From the IMG/VR virus record IMGVR_UViG_2690315992_000015, positions 1 to 13,859 of that record: 13,859 nt of DNA, one strand, 5' to 3'. The position numbers and the translations under genes are program-made. The DNA is from a virus (lineage: Duplodnaviria > Heunggongvirae > Uroviricota > Caudoviricetes). Of the stretch, positions 1-11,239 are shown piece after piece (positions within the stretch are counted from its first letter, which is position 1; each line of letters opens with the position of its first letter). The notes beneath the pieces were generated by a model. It was not told the origin of the DNA. It ran no database searches and worked only from the letters and a program-made list of their open reading frames with translations.

Positions 1-462
1 TTATTTCACTTCTTTAAAACCAGCGGCTTTCATCACCAGTTCCATTTGCGCCATAGTGATACCTTTTTTGGCATCTTCAGCAGAAACGTTGATTCCTGAA
101 ATACCCTGCAGGGCTTTAAAATCCACTTTTTCCATATCGATAGTCACGTTTTCCTGCGCGTAGGTATCTGTATAGGTTAATTTTTCTTCAACACCCGCGA
201 TGTTTTTGTATTTGGCGCTTAACGGCTCAAGTGTCTTGGCAGCGTCTTCTTTGGTGGTTGCACCAATAGAAGCAAATTGAATTTTGGTTTCAGAAGATTG
301 CTTAAGCACCTTGTCACCTTTGTAGACATAGGTAATGGCAATTTCAGTGCCGTTCAGATTGGCGCTGAATTTCTTCGATTCTTCTTTGTCACCGCAGCCA
401 GCAAGAGAGAAAACCAGAACAGATGCAACAACGAGGGAAAACAGCTTATTGAAAGCCTTCAT
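1..462 (-). CDS. yehR: DUF1307-family lipoprotein (YehR-like)
   Basis: Minus-strand ORF whose stop (TAA) is at 1-3. N-terminus MKAFNKLFSLVVASVLVFSLAGC has a hydrophobic signal peptide and a LAGC lipobox. GGAG lies about 8 nt upstream of the ATG at 460-462, so the track's 474 start (MEFYMKAF) is probably an over-extension. Identity as YehR is from recalled similarity. Confidence 0.8.
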   Translation of the reverse strand: MKAFNKLFSLVVASVLVFSLAGCGDKEESKKFSANLNGTEIAITYVYKGDKVLKQSSETKIQFASIGATTKEDAAKTLEPLSAKYKNIAGVEEKLTYTDTYAQENVTIDMEKVDFKALQGISGINVSAEDAKKGITMAQMELVMKAAGFKEVK

Positions 463-491
463 GTAAAACTCCATTTTATTTAATCAAGAAA

Positions 492-508
492 CTGGTGACT
501 CTCACCAG
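492..508 (-). other. intergenic stem-loop (7-bp stem ctggtga / tcaccag, 3-nt loop) between yehQ stop and yehR start; possible attenuator or RNA-stabilising hairpin
   Basis: Perfect inverted repeat read directly from the sequence; on the minus strand it is followed by the T-rich TTTCTTGATT. Function not established. Confidence 0.3.
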
Positions 509-586
509 GGGCTATATAGAATATGCCTAATACCGTGACGTGAGCAGTCCGGAACTGGAGTAGAACTCTTAGTAAAAAGCACTATT

Positions 587-2587
587 TCATCCTTGTTGCT
601 GAAGCATGGGGAATAATTGTTCGCAAAGTAAAACACCGTTATTCATTGCTTCTACCCGTGCCTCGCTTTCTGTATTACGAAATTGTCCCAACACATGTGC
701 CAGCCGATAAAAACCGACCGCGGAGAGGTCATTCGCCAGCAACTCTGCCTGACTAATAGCGCTCTGTTCCTGATAGCGCCAGCCGTTATGGAGCAGTTGA
801 ATAAGTAACGCCTGGCAGCGCATCAGCAACTGATGAGCGGTAGACGGCACAGGCAAAACGCTGGCAGAAGGTAGCGGTGCCACAGGCGCAGTTTCTGCGT
901 CCAGCGCCCAGGCGCGGGTTTTTGTCATCATCACCCGTGGTTCCAGTGTCAATTGCCCATCAACAAAACTGACAAAGCCAGAAACCAGACTCACGGGGTC
1001 GTCTGTTTGTTGCAAAAGCGCCGCCATGCGTTCAACGGCAAAAGGAGAACAGGCAGATGCCGGAAGGGATAACGTCAGGAGATTATCTTCACCTTCGCCG
1101 CTGATTACCTGCGCATCCAGCGTCTGGCGGCTGCTATCCCAACCGAGCGAAATACACTCAGCGACCGGCAGAATAAATAAGTTATCGACCTGATTAAGAG
1201 GCCGTATGCAGGCGGGGGGACGCTGGCGTAAATATTCCCGCAAAGCCACAATGCCCGGCTGGCGTAACGGCGCGCTCAACATTTGCCAGGCATCAGGCGA
1301 CAGCGGCACAACGCTGCTTAAGCGGTTGCGGGTAGCTAACAGCAGCTCGCCATCGGCACTGCGTTTTGCTGCTTGTGAAACAATTTGCCCACCCGCCAGT
1401 GCGCCAGCCTGAAAACTAAACAGCCGACGCGTAGCTGCCGGTGAGTTTTCCTGTTCACTTCGCGGCCAACTGCGCGAAAGGTGCAAAATACTGCCGGTGT
1501 CGGGATCGGTAAACCAGATGCGTAAACCATAATGCTCAATATCCTGCCAGCAACGCATACCTAAAGACACCAGCCGCAGATGATCAAGCTTTGCTTCTCC
1601 GGCAATGCCAGAGCCAACGACCGTGCGCCACGGCACAGGAGGAACTTCACCAACACTGTCGCGCCGGGCCATCTCTTGTGCGCAATTTAATCGACTGTTT
1701 AATGCCGCAAGCTGACGTAAGCATTCTCCGGCATGATAGTGGCTGGCGCGAGTGTGGAAGGCATCAACGCTTGCCCGTAGCTGTCGTAGTGATTCACTCA
1801 CCCAGCGCCAGTTGCAGGCCTCTGCCGCCTGCAATGCGCGGTTGAATGCTGCCTCGTAGTGAATAAGCGGCTGGCTGATGCCGCCAAGCCATAATGCCTG
1901 GCTTAATTGCTGAACATATTGACGACACGTTTGGCCTTCTTCGCTGGCAAACGGATCGTCAGATGATGTGACGTGTTCGCTGCGCATCTGCCAGATTAAA
2001 TGGTTAAATTCTGCTTGCTGCGCTTTGGCCTCGACGAAGGCCTGCACAGCCAGTACGACATGTTCGCAAAGTGTGCCTTCAATACAATCACAACGGGCGA
2101 AACGAATACTGCTACGGGAATAAAAACGCACATCGCTCATCGGTAAGCGGGCAGAGGGAATTTCGCCCGGCGCACAGAACAACTCAATGGTGATGCCTTT
2201 AGCGACCAGCGCCTGCGCGCGTTTGCGGGTGGCATCGGGCAGGGTAGCCAGTTCTTCCAGCCAGATTGCCGGATCCCACTCTTCTTCTTTTTCCGTGGGC
2301 TGGACGGTGGCACAAAGTCGTTGATAACTTAACACCAGCATCACGCGATGACGGCACATGCCGCTGGCCCCGCAGCTGCACTGAGCCTCTTTCAGTGCCT
2401 GGCTGTTCGCCAGCTGGGTACGGACACCGTCACTGAAGGTGGCGATTAAAGCGCCGTTCTCATGGCTGATTTCCGGGACGTTGCCATTTTCCAGTTCCTT
2501 AAGACTGCGCTTAACAAAACCGGCATTGCTTAACGCCGTCAGTGCCTGCGGTGTCAGTTCTAATAATTCCGGACGTAGTGAATTCAT
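587..2587 (-). CDS. yehQ: SWIM zinc-finger domain protein (YehQ-like)
   Basis: Long minus-strand ORF with two CxC...CxH motifs (CSCGASGMCRH and CDCIEGTLCEH). The track ORF runs through the N gap as X residues; the real start is most likely the ATG at 2585-2587 (MNSLRPELL), 5 nt from the gap. Upstream partner genes would lie beyond the gap. Confidence 0.8.
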   Translation of the reverse strand: MNSLRPELLELTPQALTALSNAGFVKRSLKELENGNVPEISHENGALIATFSDGVRTQLANSQALKEAQCSCGASGMCRHRVMLVLSYQRLCATVQPTEKEEEWDPAIWLEELATLPDATRKRAQALVAKGITIELFCAPGEIPSARLPMSDVRFYSRSSIRFARCDCIEGTLCEHVVLAVQAFVEAKAQQAEFNHLIWQMRSEHVTSSDDPFASEEGQTCRQYVQQLSQALWLGGISQPLIHYEAAFNRALQAAEACNWRWVSESLRQLRASVDAFHTRASHYHAGECLRQLAALNSRLNCAQEMARRDSVGEVPPVPWRTVVGSGIAGEAKLDHLRLVSLGMRCWQDIEHYGLRIWFTDPDTGSILHLSRSWPRSEQENSPAATRRLFSFQAGALAGGQIVSQAAKRSADGELLLATRNRLSSVVPLSPDAWQMLSAPLRQPGIVALREYLRQRPPACIRPLNQVDNLFILPVAECISLGWDSSRQTLDAQVISGEGEDNLLTLSLPASACSPFAVERMAALLQQTDDPVSLVSGFVSFVDGQLTLEPRVMMTKTRAWALDAETAPVAPLPSASVLPVPSTAHQLLMRCQALLIQLLHNGWRYQEQSAISQAELLANDLSAVGFYRLAHVLGQFRNTESEARVEAMNNGVLLCEQLFPMLQQQG

Positions 2588-2592
2588 GACTG

Positions 2593-2606
2593 NNNNNNNN
2601 NNNNNN
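2593..2606. other. assembly gap (14 N)
   Basis: Literal run of n in the sequence; flanking sequence on the two sides belongs to different gene contexts. Confidence 0.97.
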
Positions 2607-2623: not shown

Positions 2624-3121
2624 TTATTTAGCCCTCACCAGAAAGTTAAATGCAATATTTCGCGGTCTGACAGCAACAAAATTCACACCATCACCCACAG
2701 AGTTACTGGTGAAATTAAATCGTGAAAATCCTGGCTGATTTCCGGCGATGCCATCATGAAAGTTAATTGCGTGTCCCGCACCTCCGCCTATATTCCCGGC
2801 AAACTGAGAAAAGTTTGTAGCTTCCTGCCAGCTTAATAATTCGCGACCACCATCTGCACCTCGCCCGTCATCCCAGATACGAATGAAATCACCGCGGGCT
2901 TCAGGTAATACCAGCGAAGGAAATACTTTCGCCAGCACAGGATAATCAGTGGCAGAGAATTTCGCGCCGTTGAACTTCAAAAACACCATACTGGACCAGC
3001 TGTCGATTACAGTATTTGGCATTGCAGCGGACGGCCAGAAGAACGGAACGCCAATAGCTGGAGCACCTTCTCCCAAACCAACGTTTAAGAAAATGCAGAG
3101 GTACCAGCTAACTGGCATCAT
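2624..3121 (-). CDS. phage tail-fibre variable C-terminal cassette (tail-collar-like domain), silent orientation of an invertible segment
   Basis: Gly/Asn-rich minus-strand ORF with the motif YPVLAKVFPSLVLPEARGDFIRIWDDGRG typical of the tail-collar region in Mu S / e14 StfP-type fibre tips. It begins next to the crossover site adjacent to the invertase gene and is closed upstream by a stop at 3131-3133, so it is not expressed as a full fibre in this orientation. The functional fusion point would be the crossover site, not the track's ATG. Confidence 0.55.
   Translation of the reverse strand: MMPVSWYLCIFLNVGLGEGAPAIGVPFFWPSAAMPNTVIDSWSSMVFLKFNGAKFSATDYPVLAKVFPSLVLPEARGDFIRIWDDGRGADGGRELLSWQEATNFSQFAGNIGGGAGHAINFHDGIAGNQPGFSRFNFTSNSVGDGVNFVAVRPRNIAFNFLVRAK
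3068..3093. other. hix/gix-like 26-bp invertase crossover site
   Basis: TTCTCCCAAACC-AA-CGTTTAAGAAAA: imperfect 12-bp inverted half-sites around a 2-bp core, fitting the recalled consensus TTnTCnnAAACC-nn-GGTTTnnGAnAA (compare hixL TTCTTGAAAACCAAGGTTTTTGATAA). It sits about 55 bp upstream of the invertase start, inside the 5' end of the fibre cassette. Confidence 0.55.
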
Positions 3122-3148: not shown

Positions 3149-3715
3149 ATGCTTATTGGCTATGTACGCGTGTCAACAAATGACCAGAACACCGATTTGC
3201 AACGTAATGCACTGAACTGCGCGGGATGTGAGCGGATTTTTGAGGACAAAATCAGTGGCACTAAGTCCGACAGACCGGGGCTGAAAAAACTACTCAGGAC
3301 ACTATCGGCAGGAGACACGCTGGTTGTCTGGAAGCTGGACAGGTTGGGGCGCAGTATGCGGCATCTTGTTACGCTGATAGAAGAGTTGCGCCAGCGTGGT
3401 GTGAATTTCAGAAGCCTGACTGACAGTATTGATACCAGTACCCCAATGGGCCGTTTCTTTTTTCATGTCATGGGTGCCCTGGCTGAAATGGAACGCGAAC
3501 TGATAGTTGAACGTACCAGGGCAGGGCTGGCTGCAGCTCGTGCCAAAGGCAGAGTAGGTGGACGCCGTCCTAAGTTGACCACCGAACAGTGGGCACAGAT
3601 TGGGCGTTTACTCGAGGCCGGAGAATCAATACAGCGTATTGCACTGATTTTTGATGTAGGCGTTTCTACCATTTATAGAAAATTTCCGGCAAATAAGATC
3701 AATGAATCCCCCTGA
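3149..3715 (+). CDS. pin: site-specific DNA invertase, serine recombinase (Pin/Gin/Cin/Hin family)
   Basis: N-terminus MLIGYVRVSTNDQNTDLQRNAL with the catalytic Ser in RVSTNDQ and a C-terminal HTH (VSTIYRKF); near-identical in pattern to e14 Pin as recalled. AGGGGG at 3137-3142 favours the ATG at 3149 over the track's 3143. Confidence 0.92.
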   Translation: MLIGYVRVSTNDQNTDLQRNALNCAGCERIFEDKISGTKSDRPGLKKLLRTLSAGDTLVVWKLDRLGRSMRHLVTLIEELRQRGVNFRSLTDSIDTSTPMGRFFFHVMGALAEMERELIVERTRAGLAAARAKGRVGGRRPKLTTEQWAQIGRLLEAGESIQRIALIFDVGVSTIYRKFPANKINESP

Positions 3716-3762
3716 ATCAGCATTATGTTGATTATCCCTGCAAGCAGACAAATACCGTTATT

Positions 3763-3780
3763 TTGTGTGAATAACGACAC
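3763..3780 (+). promoter_or_regulatory. candidate Ogr/Delta-dependent late promoter element (TGT-N12-ACA) for the FI operon
   Basis: TGTgtgaataacgacACA lies 78-95 bp upstream of the FI start codon. P2/P4 late promoters carry a TGT-N12-ACA dyad centred near -55 (established knowledge). A single motif occurrence; the transcription start is not verified. Confidence 0.45.
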
Positions 3781-3857
3781 AACTGCGCTTAGCTGTTTGT
3801 CAGGCACAATCACTTCAACATAGGGCGAAGCCTAATCCAATCAGGAGGTTCGCCACT

Positions 3858-5030
3858 ATGGCTCAGGATTACCACCACGGGGTGCGCGTTGTTGAAGTCA
3901 ACGAAGGCACCCGATCTATTACCACGGTGAGCACCGCCATCGTGGGTATGGTCTGCACGGGCGATGATGCCGATGCAAAAATGTTTCCTCTTAATAAACC
4001 CGTGCTGATCACTGATGTGCTGACTGCCAGCGGTAAAGCGGGTGAGTCAGGTACTCTGGCCCGTTCGCTGGATGCCATCGCTGACCAGGCAAAACCCGTG
4101 ACCATTGTTGTGCGTGTGCCGCAGGGTGAAACGGAAGACGAAACCACGACCAATATCATCGGCGCAGTGACTGCTGAAGGTAAAAAAACAGGTATGAAAG
4201 CCCTGTTATCTGCCCAGTCACAGCTCGGCGTTAAACCGCGCATTCTCGGCGTGCCAGGCCACGACACCAAGGCGGTAGCTACTGAGTTGCTGAGCGTGGC
4301 GCAACGCCTGCGTGGATTTGCTTACCTGTCAGCGTATGGCTGCAAGACAGTGCAGGAGGCGATCACTTACCGCGAAAACTTCAGCCAGCGCGAAGGGATG
4401 CTGATCTGGCCTGACTTTACTGGTTGGGACACGGTGCTGAATGCCGAAGCAACGGCATATGCCACCGCCCGTGCGCTTGGTCTGCGCGCCAAAATTGACG
4501 AGCAGACCGGATGGCACAAAAGCCTGTCCAACGTGGGCGTGAACGGTGTCACCGGAATTTCTGCAGATGTGTTCTGGGATCTGCAGGACCCGGCAACCGA
4601 TGCAGGTCTGCTGAACCAGAACGACGTCACCACGCTTGTGCGTAAAGACGGTTTCCGCTTCTGGGGTTCCCGCTGCCTGAGTGATGACCCGCTCTTTGCC
4701 TTCGAAAACTACACCCGCACGGCGCAGGTGCTGATGGACACGATGGCAGAAGCACACATGTGGGCGGTGGATAAACCGCTTAACCCGTCGCTGGCCCGCG
4801 ACATTATCGAAGGTATCCGCGCCAAAATGCGCAGCCTGGTCAGTCAGGGCTATCTCATTGGTGGTGATTGCTGGCTGGATGAGTCGGTGAACGACAAAGA
4901 CACGCTGAAAGCCGGAAAACTCACCATCGACTACGACTACACGCCAGTGCCGCCACTTGAAAACCTGATGCTGCGTCAGCGCATCACCGATCAGTACCTG
5001 GTGAATTTCGCCAGCCAGGTCAGCGCGTAA
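3858..5030 (+). CDS. FI: contractile tail sheath protein (P2 gpFI-like)
   Basis: 390-aa ORF with a strong AGGAGG RBS, in the conserved position at the head of the FI-FII-E-T-U-D operon; length and sequence are typical of the P2 sheath protein. Confidence 0.9.
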
Positions 5031-5039
5031 GGGGACAAC

Positions 5040-5555
5040 ATGGCATTACCACGCAAATTAAAACACCTGAACCTGTTTAACGACGGGAACAACTGGCAGG
5101 GGATCGTTGAGTCGCTGACGCTGCCGAAATTTACCCGCAAATATGAGAAGTATCGCGGCGGCGGAATGCCGGGTGCGGTGGATGTGGATCTGGGGCTTGA
5201 TGACAGTGCGCTGGACACAGAATTTTCCATTGGTGGTACTGAATTGCTGCTGTTTAAACAGATGGGTAAAGCCACGGTGGATGGCATCCAGCTGCGCTTT
5301 ACCGGCTCTATTCAGCGTGACGATACCGGGGAAGTGCAGGCCGTGGAGCTTGTCGTGCGTGGACGTCACAAAGAAGTGGATTCCGGCGAGTGGAAGACGG
5401 GCGAAAGCAACACCACCAAAGTGACCAGTACCAACAGCTACGCGAAGCTGACCATCAATGGTGAGGTGCTCTATGAAGTGGACCTTATCAACATGGTGGA
5501 AATTGTGGACGGTGTGGACCTGATGGAAGCGCACCGCAACGCCCTCGGCCTCTGA
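5040..5555 (+). CDS. FII: tail tube protein (P2 gpFII-like)
   Basis: 171-aa ORF 9 bp downstream of FI with an AGGGGA RBS; size and position match the P2 tube protein. Confidence 0.9.
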   Translation: MALPRKLKHLNLFNDGNNWQGIVESLTLPKFTRKYEKYRGGGMPGAVDVDLGLDDSALDTEFSIGGTELLLFKQMGKATVDGIQLRFTGSIQRDDTGEVQAVELVVRGRHKEVDSGEWKTGESNTTKVTSTNSYAKLTINGEVLYEVDLINMVEIVDGVDLMEAHRNALGL

Positions 5556-5566
5556 TATATCTGAAC

Positions 5567-5584
5567 GGCGCGGGATACCGCGCC
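5567..5584 (+). other. GC-rich hairpin (GGCGCGG-gata-CCGCGCC) between FII and E
   Basis: Perfect 7-bp GC stem read from the sequence; no U-tract follows, so it is more likely a partial attenuator or mRNA-stability element than a full terminator. Confidence 0.3.
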
Positions 5585-5609
5585 AGAACCCAATTGACAG
5601 GACAGCAAA

Positions 5610-5912
5610 ATGAGCGATAAGCAGACTGAAAAGACCATTCAACTGGATACCCCCATCAAGCGCGGTAAAACAGAAATCACCGAAATTGTGCTGCGTAAAC
5701 CGCAGTCCGGTGCGCTGCGCGGTACACGCCTGCAGGCCATTATGGATATGGATGTAAACGCGATGATGACCGTGATCCCCCGCATCTCCAGTCCGGCACT
5801 GACTGCACAGGAAATTGCAGAGATGGACCCGGCAGATCTCACTGCCATGTCGGTTGAGGTTGTCACTTTTTTGTTGAAGAAGTCGGTGCTTGCCGGTTTA
5901 CCGACAGCCTGA
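5610..5912 (+). CDS. E: tail assembly chaperone (P2 gpE-like)
   Basis: 100-aa ORF between the tube and tape-measure genes; the N-terminal pattern (LDTPIKRGKTEITEIVLRKP...GALRG) resembles P2 gpE; contains the slippery heptamer near its 3' end. Confidence 0.85.
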   Translation: MSDKQTEKTIQLDTPIKRGKTEITEIVLRKPQSGALRGTRLQAIMDMDVNAMMTVIPRISSPALTAQEIAEMDPADLTAMSVEVVTFLLKKSVLAGLPTA

Positions 5913-6046
5913 CGGTTGACGATCTGGTGGCAGATATCGCCACCATTTTTCACTGGCCGCCATCCGTTACTGACGTTATGCCGCTGACCGAAGTGCTGGA
6001 ATGGCGGTATAAAGCGATTCAGAGAAGCGGGGCCAACGATGAGTGA
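5610..6046 (+). CDS. E': E+E' fusion made by programmed -1 frameshift at T_TTT_TTG (5867-5873)
   Basis: The canonical P2 slippery heptamer is in the zero frame at 5867-5873. The -1 frame is open from 5873 to a TGA at 6044-6046 (VEEVGACRFTDSLTVDDLVADIATIFHWPPSVTDVMPLTEVLEWRYKAIQRSGANDE) and overlaps the T start, as in P2. Confidence 0.65.
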
Positions 6047-7553
6047 TAACAACCTGCGTCTGCAGGTCATTCTTAATGCGGTTGACAAGCTCACCCGTCC
6101 ATTTCGATCTGCGCAGGCCAGTTCAAGAGAACTGGCTGCTGCTGTCAAAAAATCCCGCGATGCAATAAAGCAGCTTGATCAGGCCGGGAGCAGTCTGGAC
6201 AGCTTCCGAAAGCTGCAGGCAGAAAATCAGAAATTAGGCGACAGGCTGAACTATGCCCGCCAGCGTGCAAATTTGCTCAGTCAGGAACTGGGAGCGATGG
6301 GGCCGCCTTCGCAACGTCAGGTTGTTGCTCTGGGCCGTCAACGGCTGGCTGTTCAGCGCCTGGAAGAACGCCAGAAAAAGCTGCAGCAGCAGACGGCGCT
6401 TGTGCGTGCTGAACTGTACCGGGCGGGAATTTCTGCGAAAGACGATGCGGGAGCAACTGCCCGTTTAGCCCGTGAAACATCACGTTATAACCAGGAACTT
6501 TCGAAACAGGAGGCGCGGCTGAAGCGACTGGGGGAAGCTCAGCGCAGGATGAATGCAGCGCGTGCCAGTTATGCCCGTTCGCTGGAGGTGCGTGATCGTA
6601 TTGCAGGTGCCGGAGCCACCACCACGGCTGCAGGGCTGGCAATGGGTGCGCCAGTGATGGCGGCAGTAAAAAGCTATACCAGCATGGAAGATGCCATGAA
6701 AGGTGTGGCAAAGCAGGTCAATGGTCTGCGTGACGATAATGGCAACCGCACTGCACGTTTTTATGAAATGCAGGATGCCATCAAGGCTGCCAGCGAACAG
6801 TTGCCGATGGAAAACGGTGCGGTGGACTTCGCTGCACTGGTTGAAGGTGGTGCGCGCATGAACGTCGCAAACCCTGACGACAGCTGGGAAGATCAGAAAC
6901 GTGACCTGCTGGCCTTCGCCAGTACGGCAGCAAAGGCGGCAACAGCCTTTGAGCTGCCAGCGGATGAACTGTCAGAAAGTCTGGGGAAAATCGCCCAGCT
7001 CTACAAAATCCCCACCCGCAATATTGAACAGCTCGGTGATGCGCTGAACTATCTGGATGATAACGCCATGTCGAAAGGGGCAGACATCATTGATGTGATG
7101 CAACGTCTGGGCGGTGTGGCTGACCGTCTGGATTATCGTAAAGCGGCGGCGCTGGGTTCCACCTTCCTGACACTGGGCGCTGCGCCAGAGGTTGCAGCCA
7201 GTGCAGCAAACGCGATGGTGCGTGAATTGTCCATTGCCACCATGCAAAGCAAGAGTTTCTTTGAAGGGATGAATCTGCTGAAACTCAATCCTGAAGTGAT
7301 TGAAAAGCAGATGACGAAGGATGCGATGGGAACCATCCAGCGCGTGCTGGAGAAGGTAAACGCGCTGCCGCAGGACAAGCGCCTGTCTGCCATGACTATG
7401 TTGTTTGGTAAAGAGTTTGGCGATGACGCGGCGAAACTGGCAAACAACCTGCCGGAACTGCAGCGTCAGTTAAAACTGACAGCGGGCAATGATGCGCTCG
7501 GCTCCATGCAGAAAGAATCCGACATTAACAAGGATTCACTTTCTGCGCAGTGA
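6039..7553 (+). CDS. T: tail tape measure protein, N-terminal 504 codons (P2 gpT-like), ends at an in-frame TGA
   Basis: Coiled-coil-rich, Ala/Gln/Arg/Leu-rich N-terminus typical of tape measure proteins, in the correct operon position. The TGA at 7551-7553 is followed in the same frame by the next ORF. Confidence 0.8.
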   Translation: MSDNNLRLQVILNAVDKLTRPFRSAQASSRELAAAVKKSRDAIKQLDQAGSSLDSFRKLQAENQKLGDRLNYARQRANLLSQELGAMGPPSQRQVVALGRQRLAVQRLEERQKKLQQQTALVRAELYRAGISAKDDAGATARLARETSRYNQELSKQEARLKRLGEAQRRMNAARASYARSLEVRDRIAGAGATTTAAGLAMGAPVMAAVKSYTSMEDAMKGVAKQVNGLRDDNGNRTARFYEMQDAIKAASEQLPMENGAVDFAALVEGGARMNVANPDDSWEDQKRDLLAFASTAAKAATAFELPADELSESLGKIAQLYKIPTRNIEQLGDALNYLDDNAMSKGADIIDVMQRLGGVADRLDYRKAAALGSTFLTLGAAPEVAASAANAMVRELSIATMQSKSFFEGMNLLKLNPEVIEKQMTKDAMGTIQRVLEKVNALPQDKRLSAMTMLFGKEFGDDAAKLANNLPELQRQLKLTAGNDALGSMQKESDINKDSLSAQ

Positions 7554-9116
7554 TTGCTGGTCAAAACCGGAGCGCAGAACACCTTCAGCAGCCTGGGCGA
7601 AACGCTGCGCCAGCCGCTGATGGATATTCTGTACACGGTGAAAAGCGTCACGGGGGCGTTGCGTCGCTGGGTGGAAGCTAACCCGGAACTGACAGGCACA
7701 CTGATGAAAGCATCGGCTGTTGTGGCTGCGGTTACCGTCGGCCTCGGCACCTTAGCGGTGGCGCTGGCTGCAGTGCTGGGGCCGCTGGCAGTGATCCGTC
7801 TGGGATTCTCTGTGTTGGGTATCAAAACGTTATCTTCCGTTACGGCAGCAGTAACTCGAACCAGCAGCGCGTTGTCCTGGCTGGCTGGCGCACCACTGGC
7901 ACTGCTGCGACGCGGGCTTGCTTCATCGGGCAACGCCGCAGGTTTACTTACTGCGCCGTTGTCGTCTTTGCGCCGCACGGCATCACTGACGGGAAATGTC
8001 CTGAAAACTGTAGCAGGTGCGCCGGTTGCACTTTTGCGGTCTGGATTATCCGGTTTACGTGCGGTTGCTGTGATGTTTATGAATCCACTGGCAGCACTAC
8101 GCGGCGGGCTGGCTGCCGCAGGCACGGTGCTGCGAGTACTGGCATCTGGTCCACTGGCGATGTTGCGCGTTGCCCTGTATGCCGTATCTGGTCTGTTAGG
8201 TGCTCTGCTCAGTCCGATAGGTCTTGTGGTTACTGCACTGGCGGGTGTGGCACTGGTTGTCTGGAAATACTGGCAACCCATCACCGCATTTCTCGGTGGC
8301 GTGGTGGAAGGATTCAAAGCGGCGGCAGGTCCCATCAGTGCAGCGTTCGAACCGCTTAAGCCTGTGTTCCAGTGGATTGGTGACAAAGTGCAGGCGCTGT
8401 GGGGCTGGTTTACTGATCTGCTGACGCCCGTTAAGTCGACTTCTGCCGAACTGCAGAGCGCAGCGGCAATGGGGCGACGATTCGGGGAGGCACTGGCGGA
8501 AGGGCTGAATATGGTTATGCATCCGCTGGACTCCCTGAAATCTGGCGTTTCCTGGTTGCTGGATAAACTCGGCATTGTCAGTAAAGAGGCTGCAAAGGCG
8601 AAACTGCCGGAAAGCGTGACGCGTCAGCAACCTGCGACGGTGAATGCAGACGGTAAAGTGATGATGCCATCGGGTGGTTTTCCGTCATGGGGATATGGCT
8701 TTGCGGGGATGTATGACAGCGGCGGCTATATCCCGCGCGGGCAGTTTGGCATCGTCGGTGAAAACGGGCCGGAAATTGTTAACGGCCCGGCAAATGTGAC
8801 CAGCCGGAGAAATACAGCTGCACTGGCTGCCGTTGTTGCCGGAATGATGGGCGTTGCTGCCGCGCCTGCAGAGCTTCCACCGTTGCACCCTTTGGCACTT
8901 CCCGCGAAAGGCGGCGAAGCGATGGTGAGTCGTGCAGCCACTGTGCCGCCCGTTCAACGGATTGAGGCACCGATGCAGATCATCATTCAGACGCAGCCAG
9001 GACAAAGTGCGCAGGATATTGCGCGGGAGGTGGCCCGCCAGCTTGATGAACGTGAACGTAGGCTGAAGGCAAAAGCCAGGAGTAACTACAGCGATCAGGG
9101 GGGATACGACGCATGA
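7554..9116 (+). CDS. T: tail tape measure protein, C-terminal 520 codons (same frame as 6039-7553)
   Basis: Same reading frame as the upstream segment (6039 and 7554 are both multiples of 3). Contains the hydrophobic repeat region and C-terminal part of a tape measure protein; the stop overlaps the U start (ATGA). The two segments together give about 1025 codons, a plausible size for a P2-family tape measure protein. Confidence 0.75.
   Translation: MLVKTGAQNTFSSLGETLRQPLMDILYTVKSVTGALRRWVEANPELTGTLMKASAVVAAVTVGLGTLAVALAAVLGPLAVIRLGFSVLGIKTLSSVTAAVTRTSSALSWLAGAPLALLRRGLASSGNAAGLLTAPLSSLRRTASLTGNVLKTVAGAPVALLRSGLSGLRAVAVMFMNPLAALRGGLAAAGTVLRVLASGPLAMLRVALYAVSGLLGALLSPIGLVVTALAGVALVVWKYWQPITAFLGGVVEGFKAAAGPISAAFEPLKPVFQWIGDKVQALWGWFTDLLTPVKSTSAELQSAAAMGRRFGEALAEGLNMVMHPLDSLKSGVSWLLDKLGIVSKEAAKAKLPESVTRQQPATVNADGKVMMPSGGFPSWGYGFAGMYDSGGYIPRGQFGIVGENGPEIVNGPANVTSRRNTAALAAVVAGMMGVAAAPAELPPLHPLALPAKGGEAMVSRAATVPPVQRIEAPMQIIIQTQPGQSAQDIAREVARQLDERERRLKAKARSNYSDQGGYDA
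7779..8177 (+). repeat. degenerate tandem repeats (about 66 bp / 22 aa period) inside the tape measure gene
   Basis: Recurring peptide motif GPLAVIRLGF / APLALLRRGL / APLSSLRRTA / APVALLRSGL / NPLAALRGGL / GPLAMLRVAL at roughly 22-aa spacing; the corresponding DNA motif CCACTGGC...CTGCG..G recurs. Confidence 0.5.
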
Positions 9117-9598
9117 TGATGGTGCTGGGATTGTACGTGTTTATGCTGCGCACCGTGCCGTATCAGGAGCTGCAGTATCAACGCAGCTGGCGACATGCGG
9201 CAAACAGCCGGGTAAACCGACGTCCGTCCACGCAGTTTCTGGGACCGGACAACGACATGCTGACGCTTTCCGGTGTTCTTATGCCGGAGATAACAGGTGG
9301 CAGGCTGTCGTTGCTGGCACTGGAGCAGATGGCAGAACAGGGGAAAGCATGGCCCCTGATTGAAGGCAGCGGCACGATTTATGGCATGTATGTGATTGAG
9401 GGACTGAATCAGACTAAAACGGAGTTTTTCCGCGACGGTATGCCGCGCCGGATTGAGTTCACCCTGTCGCTCAAACGGGTGGATGAATCCCTGTCCGATA
9501 TGTTCGGTGATCTCAGTGCGCAACTGAATAATCTGCAGGAAACGGCAACGTCTGCCTTAAGCGATATCAGTAAAACGGTGGGAGGGCTGCTGTCGTGA
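9113..9598 (+). CDS. U: tail protein (P2 gpU-like)
   Basis: 161-aa ORF with a GGGGGGA RBS; start overlaps the T stop. Motifs QFLGPDNDMLTLSGVL and WPLIEGSGTIYGMYVIEGL match the recalled P2 gpU pattern. Confidence 0.88.
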   Translation: MMMVLGLYVFMLRTVPYQELQYQRSWRHAANSRVNRRPSTQFLGPDNDMLTLSGVLMPEITGGRLSLLALEQMAEQGKAWPLIEGSGTIYGMYVIEGLNQTKTEFFRDGMPRRIEFTLSLKRVDESLSDMFGDLSAQLNNLQETATSALSDISKTVGGLLS

Positions 9599-10695
9599 AT
9601 TTCAGCTCTGAACTGCTTAACAAAAGCAACAAAACTCCGGCATTCAGCATCAGTATTGAGGGTAGGGATATCACCACTGTGCTGGATAACCGCCTGATGA
9701 GTCTGACTCTGACGGACAATCGGGGCTTTGAAGCAGACCAGCTTGATCTGGAGCTGGACGATGCCGACGGGAAAATCGTGCTGCCGCGCCGTGGTGCGGT
9801 CATTACGCTGGCGCTGGGCTGGAAGGGGCAGCCGCTTTTCCCGAAAGGGGCATTCACGGTGGACGAGATTGAACACACTGGCGCACCGGACCGCCTGACT
9901 ATCCGGGCGCGAAGTGCTGATTTTCGGGAAACGCTGAATACCCGCCGTGAAAAATCGTGGCACAAGACCACCATTGGGGAAGTGGTGAAGGAGATAGCCG
10001 CGCGGCACAAGCTGAAGATGGTACTGGGTAAAGACCTGTCGGATAAGCTCGTGGAGCATATAGACCAGACTAATGAGAGTGACGGTAGTTTTCTGATGCG
10101 GCTGGCGCGACAGTACGGTGCCATCGCGTCGGTGAAAAATGGCAATCTGTTATTCATCCGGCAGGGGCAGGGCAAAAGCGCCACTGGTAAACCACTGCCA
10201 GTGATCACTATCACACGCAAGGACGGCGACAGTCACCGCTTTACCCTGGCAGATCGCGGAGCCTACACGGGCGTAATTGCCAGCTGGTTGCATACCCGCG
10301 AACCTGCGAAGAAAGAAAGCACCACGGTGAAGCGTAAGCGCAGAACTAAGAAGCAGAAGAAAGAGCCGGAAGCGAAGCAGGGCGATTACCTGGTGGGTAC
10401 GGATGAAAACGTGCTGGTACTTAATCGCACTTATGCCAACCGGAGCAACGCTGAACGGGCAGCGAAAATGCAGTGGGAACGCCTGCAACGCGGCGTTGCG
10501 TCATTCTCGCTACAACTGGCGGAAGGGCGGGCAGATCTTTACACGGAAATGCCAGTGAAAGTTAGTGGCTTTAAACAACCGATAGATGATGCGGAATGGA
10601 CCATTACGACTCTGACGCATACCGTCAGCCCCGATAACGGTTTTACAACCAGTCTGGAGCTTGAAGTGAGGATTGATGATTTCGAAATGGAATGA
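9595..10695 (+). CDS. D: tail protein D (P2 gpD-like)
   Basis: 366-aa ORF with a GTG start overlapping the U stop (GTGA); last gene of the tail operon before ogr, as in P2. Confidence 0.88.
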   Translation: MNFSSELLNKSNKTPAFSISIEGRDITTVLDNRLMSLTLTDNRGFEADQLDLELDDADGKIVLPRRGAVITLALGWKGQPLFPKGAFTVDEIEHTGAPDRLTIRARSADFRETLNTRREKSWHKTTIGEVVKEIAARHKLKMVLGKDLSDKLVEHIDQTNESDGSFLMRLARQYGAIASVKNGNLLFIRQGQGKSATGKPLPVITITRKDGDSHRFTLADRGAYTGVIASWLHTREPAKKESTTVKRKRRTKKQKKEPEAKQGDYLVGTDENVLVLNRTYANRSNAERAAKMQWERLQRGVASFSLQLAEGRADLYTEMPVKVSGFKQPIDDAEWTITTLTHTVSPDNGFTTSLELEVRIDDFEME

Positions 10696-10785
10696 TTCTT
10701 CGCAATGGAGAACTTTTAAGTTTGCAAAATGGAATAATGCGGTATCATTATTGTGAATTTAGCAAAAATGGGGAGAACTCGAAAA

Positions 10786-11004
10786 ATGATGATTTGCCCA
10801 CTGTGTGGAAGTGCCGCCCATACTCGCAGCAGTTTTCAGGTATCTTCATTGACCAAAGAGCGTTACAACCAGTGCCAGAATATTAACTGCAGCCATACTT
10901 TTGTAACCCATGAAACTTTTGTTCGTTCGATTGCAACGCCAAAAGAGTCAAATCCGGTTCAGCCGCATCCAATGAAATCAGGACAGGTGGCGCTCTCTCT
11001 TTGA
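10786..11004 (+). CDS. ogr: Ogr/Delta-family zinc-finger late transcription activator
   Basis: 72-aa product MMICPLCGSAAHTRSS...CQNINCSHTF with the C-x2-C...C-x4-C arrangement of P2 Ogr. GGGGAGA lies 9 nt upstream of the ATG at 10786; the track's 10753 start is probably an over-extension. Confidence 0.9.
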   Translation: MMICPLCGSAAHTRSSFQVSSLTKERYNQCQNINCSHTFVTHETFVRSIATPKESNPVQPHPMKSGQVALSL

Positions 11005-11084
11005 CGCTGCCGCCATTTTGTCGCCATCGTTAAAAAACAGTGCTTCTAACGTCATGATTTTAAACGGCATAAATTTCAGGCAAC

Positions 11085-11127
11085 AAAAAACCCATCAACC
11101 TTGAACCGAAATGGCGGGGTTGATGGG
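11085..11127 (-). terminator. rho-independent terminator of ybjL
   Basis: Stem CCCATCAACC / GGTTGATGGG (10 bp), followed on the minus strand by a TTTTTT run (plus-strand AAAAAA at 11085-11090); lies 110-150 bp downstream of the ybjL stop. Confidence 0.55.
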
Positions 11128-11239
11128 CTCCACAAAATGGGGACATCAAAGAAAAGCAGTGGCACTAATTAAGACTGATGCCCTGCGGAAAAGTTCTGCG
11201 GTTGTGCAAAAAAATTTCATTTTCAGGGCAACTTCAGTT

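Follow-up and report, generated by a model that had tools for sequence, protein, structure and literature searches.

A recent nonsense mutation probably inactivates the tape measure gene of an otherwise intact P2-family prophage in one Escherichia coli clone

The window analysed here, a stretch of 13,859 nucleotides, carries the right end of a P2-family prophage (Peduoviridae, Wadgaonvirus-like) integrated beside rybB/ybjL in the E. coli draft genome GCA_001285585.2, and within it the tape measure gene T is interrupted by a single in-frame TGA. We consider it highly probable (roughly 85%) that this codon reflects a recent, vertically inherited inactivating nonsense mutation, TGG to TGA (G7553A, codon 505), in gene T of an otherwise intact prophage. 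The allele would most likely be a prophage pseudogene created by point mutation, part of ordinary prophage decay. A preliminary description of this DNA had left the choice between an inactivating mutation, a sequencing error and low-level opal read-through; the first of these was selected here, since homologues carry TGG at codon 505 and the same TGA is found in independent assemblies.

Both open reading frames concerned lie on the plus strand and in the same frame. The first (6039-7553) comprises 504 codons and TGA, the second (7554-9116) comprises TTG, 519 codons and TGA, and the sole separator between them is the TGA at 7551-7553 (…TCT GCG CAG TGA TTG CTG GTC…); with Trp restored at codon 505, the joined frame encodes 1025 aa. 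In 32 phage records and about 1000 E. coli genomes, one uninterrupted 3078-nt tape measure CDS covers both halves over their full length, with 95-99% identity. The earlier proposal of one tape measure gene of about 1025 codons was confirmed from the frames and from the homologue alignment, by which the ORF pair reads as one tape measure gene and no chance juxtaposition. Annotated in relatives as a single tape measure CDS, the gpT-like gene is divided here into a 5′ part (codons 1-504, 6039-7550) and a 3′ part (7554-9116) that comprises codons 506-1025 and the native TGA at the end of the gene, continues TIGR01760 and carries the hydrophobic segments.

Domain analysis placed a PF10145 (PhageMin_Tail) match at residues 246-457 (69.3 bits versus a gathering cut-off of 33.2). 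TIGR01760 (tape_meas_TP901) matched residues 200-504 of the first ORF (profile positions 2-286, 250.3 bits) and residues 2-62 of the second (profile positions 289-349, 38.8 bits), both above the curated cut-off of 28.8; with this model spanning both sides, the stop falls within one conserved domain. All hydrophobic segments of T (residues 555-596, 705-745 and 926-946) lie downstream of the stop, and no tandem DNA repeats were found in T. The domain matches, together with the position after E/E′ and before gpU/gpD, place the gene in the TP901/P2 gpT-type tape measure family, an assignment that is unambiguous as far as sequence can tell. The reading frame, uninterrupted in the family, is broken in this copy by the internal TGA at codon 505, which marks it as a disrupted allele (pseudogene).

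The gene for the tail assembly chaperone gpE (PF10109; 5610-5912, plus strand) carries a -1 slippery heptamer, T TTT TTG, at 5867-5873, and the E′ extension frame (5927-6046, plus strand), reached via the -1 frameshift and recognized by its domain match (PF06528, P2 GpE), overlaps the start codon of T, which at 6039 lies within the end of E′. Downstream in the same operon and on the same strand, gpU (9113-9598) and gpD (9595-10695) are both intact. Compared with strain 13E0767, the invertase, FI, FII, E, E′, U, D, ogr, ybjL, ybjM and grxA are all intact, and the codon-505 TGA is the only internal stop in the window. About 17 kb of the roughly 33-kb prophage (lysA to ogr) was seen in the clone, and within this part the prophage appears otherwise intact, lysis genes included. 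As an anchor for walking beyond it the invertase proved too widespread (3,546 blocks), and the long contigs obtained were unrelated; the near-identical intact prophage L032 came out of the same search. The invertase in the clone still flips the fibre cassette. A split tail-fibre gene H in one clone member (L006) was considered as a sign of clone-wide decay and rejected, as it stems from a 1-bp deletion private to that member and absent in its clone-mate L008.

Alignment to intact relatives, proposed earlier as a check, revealed a sense codon at 7551-7553: codon 505 is TGG in E. coli L73 and 13E0767, in phage 500465-1, in Klebsiella phage 4LV2017 and in five more loci. Of 10 tape measures compared, 8 keep Trp505, with identities reaching as low as about 30% and each gene a single continuous CDS, and every cultured phage sampled has a single continuous tape measure gene across codon 505. 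The closest comparison was provided by an intact prophage (L032) in GCA_054888575.1, which shares with the window all but one of 7,856 phage bases (3149-11004; 7,855 identical), the sole mismatch being position 7553, while its host flank differs from the window at 15 sites. These comparisons indicate that G7553A, a transition turning TGG (Trp505) into TGA with T as the next base, is a single derived change from an identifiable intact ancestral allele.

The same relatives bear on the notion that the tape measure is by nature a pair of polypeptides divided at codon 505, as gene callers and depositors suggest by annotating proteins of 504 aa and 520 aa. Against it, one domain model runs across the junction, all phages carry a single CDS, as do nearly all prophage relatives, the otherwise identical prophage reads TGG, and the downstream ORF has neither a promoter nor a Shine-Dalgarno sequence in range. 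The lack of an independent ribosome-binding site claimed in the preliminary description holds, the nearest AAGGA ending 18 nt upstream of the TTG at 7554 and no usable Shine-Dalgarno sequence being available to the downstream ORF; its argument against two genuine genes stands as well, no intact phage having turned up whose tape measure is divided into two genes here. We regard a natural split as having next to no probability.

Inspection of individual samples confirmed TGA in the DNA of L005-L009, L012, L013 and L018. At least eight independently assembled samples bear it: five NCBI assemblies (drafts), ERR4783774, SRR18174172 and the metagenome ERZ28646433. The draft accessions of the clone are GCA_001285585, GCA_001284985, GCA_001284025, GCA_001284165 and GCA_001284765. 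Among the verified TGA samples the phage part differs by 0-2 bases, and among the carriers with host DNA on the contig the host flank likewise differs by 0-2 bases. The TGA clone consists of two sublineages, one with intact nfsA and one with nfsA S121*, and TGA occurs in both, so that the mutation is older than their split. The allele was found in one host background only, the otherwise identical TGG phage sitting in a different host; on this distribution the lesion is vertically inherited and confined to one host clone. A literature look-up on the accessions of the clone found nothing.

The carriers also decide whether the true codon is TGG and the gene intact, the TGA being an error of sequencing or assembly. 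The origin of the window, a draft scaffold interrupted by N-gaps, would fit such an error, as would the absence of the allele from complete E. coli genomes: exact 61-mer matching over 5,426 complete genomes identified 758 carrying the region, none of which has TGA or TAG at codon 505. The exact TGA allele was also not found in GTDB species representatives or IMG/VR, both too sparse for a clone-level allele. However, at least eight assemblies, which stem from different projects and technologies and count independent SRA runs and a metagenome among them, carry the same base, the substitution lies outside any homopolymer, and it is common to both sublineages of the clone. An error, hardly probable on this evidence, is effectively refuted.

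Under the preferred reading, an inactivating nonsense mutation, translation would end after residue 504 to give an N-terminal fragment of roughly 55 kDa, against about 109 kDa for full-length gpT, and devoid of the hydrophobic and C-terminal half predicted to be needed for seeding and spanning the tail tube. No tail tube forms in the absence of the tape measure and the initiator complex (PMC4493119), and with a fragment that has lost this half, tail assembly should fail on induction. This prediction assumes that no gpT is supplied in trans by a second P2-like prophage in the genome. Provided that its head, replication and integrase genes are intact, the prophage would still be able to excise, replicate, package and lyse but would release essentially no infectious particles. 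About 1.5 kb of untranslated mRNA may in addition lower the expression of U and D through polarity. The earlier suggestion of a tailocin-like remnant with altered tail length finds no support in a 504-aa product without the hydrophobic and C-terminal half and a prophage that is otherwise intact, lysis genes included.

How complete the loss would be depends on how the ribosome treats the stop. Of the stop codons in E. coli, UGA leaks most, and tRNATrp misreads it (PMC5289835, PMC10570021) in competition with RF2 (PMC10570021); rare misreading by Trp-tRNATrp would restore the exact wild-type protein. One could suppose that read-through by Trp-tRNATrp yields enough wild-type gpT, of which each tail needs only a few copies, for meaningful numbers of infectious particles. 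The intact state of the remaining tail, baseplate and lysis region in the clone, together with the continued inversion of its fibre cassette, speaks for this supposition, as does the fact that misreading would reinstate the ancestral Trp. The base at +4 after the TGA, however, is U, which lowers UGA read-through and gives the lowest read-through context (PMC5289835); it also disfavours the low-level opal read-through raised in the preliminary description. No stimulatory RNA structure was found, the fold at the stop being not significant (z = -1.47), and the stop is conserved in no relative. The restriction of TGA to one host background, with the identical TGG phage elsewhere, is what would be expected if the TGA phage were not spreading. 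Productive read-through is unlikely on balance, and from the UGA-U context misreading is expected to be rare, leaving at most a very leaky-negative phenotype. As for programmed read-through, the stop is not conserved in homologues, and neither a leaky context nor a stimulatory or SECIS structure accompanies it. A SECIS or other recoding element was rejected, as the stop site gave no Rfam or SECIS match and no significant structure; no internal promoter or terminator was found near the stop in the T gene.

A stop at codon 505 was encountered a second time. One independent lineage (L010, SRR3240968), whose T allele differs by 8 nt from that of L73 and by 43 nt from that of 13E0767, has TAG at this codon, and two Logan contigs end exactly there. 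A TAG at codon 505 in an unrelated lineage would not be expected from a single, purely neutral event, although chance and ascertainment can explain it. The TAG lineage and the contig ends would fit a recurrent and possibly selected truncation, in which codon 505 would be a hotspot of mutation or truncation would bring an advantage, whether through a useful N-terminal fragment or through a disarmed phage that benefits the host. But the look-up used the exact 504-aa product, so that stops elsewhere in T would have escaped it, and in a control 6 of 9 hypothetical products cut at other one-step-to-stop codons were also on record, mostly as contig-end partials, which makes the background high. Furthermore, TGG provides 2 of the 81 transition-to-stop paths of the gene, the TAG was seen in a single run only, and a stop in a tail gene gives the host no protection from lysis. 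The look-up method cannot separate a codon-505 hotspot from chance, and we hold recurrence of this kind to be very improbable. Equally doubtful is the stronger form, in which codon 505 is recurrently hit and truncation or splitting at the end of the N-terminal domain is selected, either for a host-beneficial fragment or as a leaky opal switch throttling virion output. The TAG would gain interest only if an unbiased census showed enrichment.

With the nonsense mutation as the preferred reading, both ORFs should be annotated together as one disrupted tape measure gene, and prophage-prediction scoring should treat the element as probably defective, not intact. The case offers a clean natural example of what is probably the first step of prophage decay, one base change that became fixed in one host clone, on a phage recently mobile and identical in all else. 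GCA_001285585 (TGA) and GCA_054888575 (TGG) would form a convenient isogenic natural control pair for UGA read-through or tail assembly. Beyond annotation, the importance of the finding is little.

Among known systems, the gene compares most directly with the gpT-type tape measure genes of the Peduoviridae, exemplified by 500465-1 gp40, 4LV2017 gp35 and Fels-2 STM2697. Over all 3078 nt of T it shares 98.7% nucleotide identity with gp40 of Escherichia phage 500465-1 (Wadgaonvirus) and 95.4% with gp35 of Klebsiella phage 4LV2017, and it has in common with P2 gpT-type systems the order FI, FII, E, E′, T, U, D, ogr, the TIGR01760/PF10145 domains and a length of 1025 aa. Where these genes encode Trp505, the copy in the window reads TGA and would be a pseudogene allele. 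Programmed UGA read-through, of which the Qβ A1 protein is an example, and selenocysteine recoding resemble it in having an in-frame UGA inside a longer frame, with tRNATrp as the natural misreader; with an unconserved stop, a UGA-U context and no SECIS or stimulatory structure, the present case does not qualify as either. Classical P2 T amber mutants are conditional-lethal nonsense mutants of a phage tail gene. The laboratory stop mutants in the structural module of TP901-1 (PMC4493119) likewise have one in-frame stop that interrupts an essential tail gene while the phage genome is otherwise intact, and by likeness to nonsense tail mutants the expected phenotype would be tailless heads, a defect that only suppression or read-through could relieve. 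In contrast to laboratory tail-gene nonsense mutants, the allele described here is of natural origin and sits in a prophage that a wild E. coli clone has passed on vertically.

The two ORFs on the plus strand, ORF1 (6039-7553; 504 codons, ATG start, TGA stop at 7551-7553) and ORF2 (7554-9116; TTG at 7554 directly after the stop, ending with TGA at 9114-9116), share one frame, as the preliminary description had observed, and codon 505 is the only internal stop of the joined frame 6039-9116, which encodes 1025 aa once this codon is restored. The 3078-nt stretch aligned end to end with the tape measure genes of Escherichia phage 500465-1 (Peduoviridae, Wadgaonvirus; 98.7%) and Klebsiella phage 4LV2017 (annotated 'P2 gpT-like'; 95.4%), and with prophage copies in about 1000 of 5,426 complete E. 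coli genomes (95-99.8% identity), each compared homologue being a single annotated tail tape measure gene aligned over the full 3078 nt. Pfam PF10145 matched residues 246-457, and NCBIfam TIGR01760 (349 positions) aligned with ORF1 residues 200-504 (profile 2-286) and resumed in ORF2 (residues 2-62, profile 289-349), indicating that the stop cuts one conserved domain and does not mark a domain or gene boundary. The only Shine-Dalgarno-like element available to ORF2 is AAGGA at 7531-7535, ending 18 nt before the TTG, and no promoter-like site was found for this downstream piece. A genuinely split gene therefore fails: one domain spans the junction, ORF2 is devoid of start signals and the boundary occurs in no phage sampled. 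Judged by these alignments, T is a disrupted allele of the known P2 gpT/TP901-type tape measure family.

Genes around T are arranged as in the late tail operon of P2, with the sheath (FI) and tube (FII) genes followed by the chaperone gene E and its -1 frameshift extension E', and then by T, U, D and ogr. Close to its 3' end, gene E keeps an intact canonical -1 slippery heptamer, T TTT TTG (5867-5873); the E' extension frame (5927-6046) is intact as well, and its stop (6044-6046) overlaps the start of T (6039). Close homologues of the tape measure (≥75% identity) are 922-1139 aa long, and allele divergence is concentrated in the C-terminal half of T (38-39 nucleotide differences vs 3 in the N-terminal half), pointing to natural variation, in tail length or by mosaicism, within the hydrophobic repeat region.

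Alignment of homologues across the site, proposed in the preliminary description, revealed the sense codon TGG in all four relatives aligned there, where the window has TGA. Over 10.8 kb the window differs from E. coli 13E0767 by 23 substitutions and no indels, one of them being G7553A (W505*). The clearest comparison is with L032 (GCA_054888575.1), which over 3149-11004 (7,856 phage bases) shows a single mismatch, at position 7553, and has 15 differences in its chromosomal flank; it is thus the same phage carrying TGG in another host background, the stop being the sole derived change. The motif containing Trp505, GSMQ[K/R]E…[S/T][A/S]QW, is kept in 8 of 10 sampled tape measures down to ~30% identity, including those of Fels-2, SEN5, Aeromonas LPM4, Acinetobacter Alexa, Serratia MQ-4, Pseudomonas Persinger and Achromobacter Mano, and the region lies within one continuous CDS in all ten phages.

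The exact TGA 61-mer was absent from all 758 complete E. coli genomes that have the region, and GTDB species representatives and IMG/VR also lack the allele. A look-up of the exact product returned many contigs on which the 520-aa ORF follows the 504-aa protein, and TGA was confirmed in the DNA of five NCBI drafts (GCA_001285585.2, identical to the window, GCA_001284985.1, GCA_001284025.1, GCA_001284165.2 and GCA_001284765.1), two independent SRA runs (ERR4783774 and SRR18174172) and ENA metagenome assembly ERZ28646433. These carriers are 0-2 bases apart in the phage part and, where the contig includes it, 0-2 bases apart in the host flank, indicating one clone. It comprises one sublineage with intact nfsA (window, L007) and another with nfsA Y86H, S121* (TCG to TAG) and a further SNP (L006, L009, L018); since both carry TGA, the mutation is older than their split. 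Loss of nfsA is a classical first step toward nitrofurantoin resistance; the gene lies at 16252-16974 in L006 and L016 and is also present in L009 and L018, ~2.4 kb past the window's right end. Sequencing or assembly error, the second option raised initially, is ruled out for practical purposes by the presence of TGA in independent assemblies and in both sublineages. The TGA allele was found in one host clone only and its TGG twin in another host, a confinement consistent with non-transmissibility.

Termination is signalled after residue 504, and the hydrophobic segments of the tape measure (residues 555-596, 705-745 and 926-946) all lie beyond the stop. The 55-kDa N-terminal fragment would be unable to serve as a ruler or to join the baseplate initiator. 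Because the tube can polymerise only when both tape measure and initiator complex are in place (PMC4493119), induction should yield lysis with tail-less heads; polarity on U and D is possible. In E. coli, UGA is misread by Trp-tRNATrp in competition with RF2 (PMC10570021), and such misreading of codon 505 would recreate the exact wild-type protein. The base following the stop is U in the mRNA, the context with the least read-through (PMC5289835), and neither unusual RNA structure (z = -1.47) nor an Rfam element was found at the stop. Programmed read-through fails, as the stop is not conserved, its context is unfavourable and a stimulatory element is lacking; we expect the defect to be tight, at most slightly leaky.

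A second stop at codon 505 was found in L010, a Logan assembly of SRR3240968, as TAG (G7552A; L010 4389-4391, corresponding to window 7551-7553), an allele seen in this one run only and in no complete E. coli genome. L010 represents an unrelated lineage of prophage, also located at the ybjL site. With 129 differences between its locus and the window, the TAG is an independent event; the T gene of L010 lies nearer to the E. coli L73 allele (8 nt) than to the 13E0767 allele (43 nt). The look-up, querying the exact 504-aa product, could detect stops at codon 505 only, and in a control 6 of 9 hypothetical products cut at other one-step-to-stop codons were also on record, several labelled 'partial' and representing contig ends. 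T offers 81 transition-to-stop paths in 70 codons, a single TGG codon providing two, and the main 90% cluster of the tape measure holds 9,661 member sequences; with thousands of copies sequenced, two hits on the same codon do not clearly exceed chance. We record the TAG as unexplained and not as evidence for selection, a hotspot being indistinguishable from chance plus ascertainment. The Logan contigs L011 (SRR30543823) and L014 (SRR35898252), from other prophage backgrounds, both end exactly at codon 505 (window 7552 and 7550), which could be an assembly-graph branch from mixed alleles at this codon in the samples or a coincidence picked by the exact-length look-up.

The remaining genes in the window are all intact. 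In the clone, a check spanning lysA through ogr found lysA, R, S, V, W, J, I, H, the fibre chaperones, invertase, FI, FII, E/E', U, D and ogr at the sizes of intact relatives. A 1-bp deletion (GGATGAC to GGAGAC) frameshifts tail-fibre gene H at ~2705 of L006 (GCA_001284985.1 only); H, upstream of the window's phage part, is intact in the clone-mate L008 (GCA_001284165.2), and the deletion reflects either a second lesion confined to L006 or a mistake in its assembly. The Din-family invertase gene (3149-3715) adjoins a minus-strand cassette (2624-3121) for an alternative tail-fibre C terminus, with a hix/cix-like crossover sequence, TTCTCCCAAACCAACGTTTAAGAAAA, at 3068-3093. This cassette is flipped and fused to H in L006 and oriented as in the window in L007 and L008, indicating that inversion is ongoing and the invertase still working within the clone.

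A 14-N run at window 2593-2606, also present in public scaffold CYDX01000001.1, separates the invertible cassette from yehR and yehQ (window 1-2592), which are 100% identical to E. coli chromosomes and normally far from ybjL. The gap appears to be a scaffolding join where the invertible segment had broken the contig, and the yehQ-phage adjacency is probably not real. In a sister scaffold (GCA_001284165.2), a second short N-run (L008/L017 8351-8361), bridged by a 603-aa gene call, links gene D to the left part of this prophage in reverse orientation; it too is a scaffolding artefact of the assembly set. At the other end, just 78 nt separate the ogr stop codon from the 3' end of the gene for the sRNA RybB (11082-11160, minus strand; Rfam RF00110, 105 bits); the prophage right end thus abuts the rybB 3' end, suggesting an attachment site at or near this gene.

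TGG in the relatives, and the TGG twin differing only at 7553, support the initially preferred reading of a nonsense mutation that inactivates T in a defective prophage; a tailocin-like remnant, suggested alongside it, gained no support. The lesion is ordinary early prophage decay, and the window T resembles a naturally occurring opal mutant in an essential tail gene.
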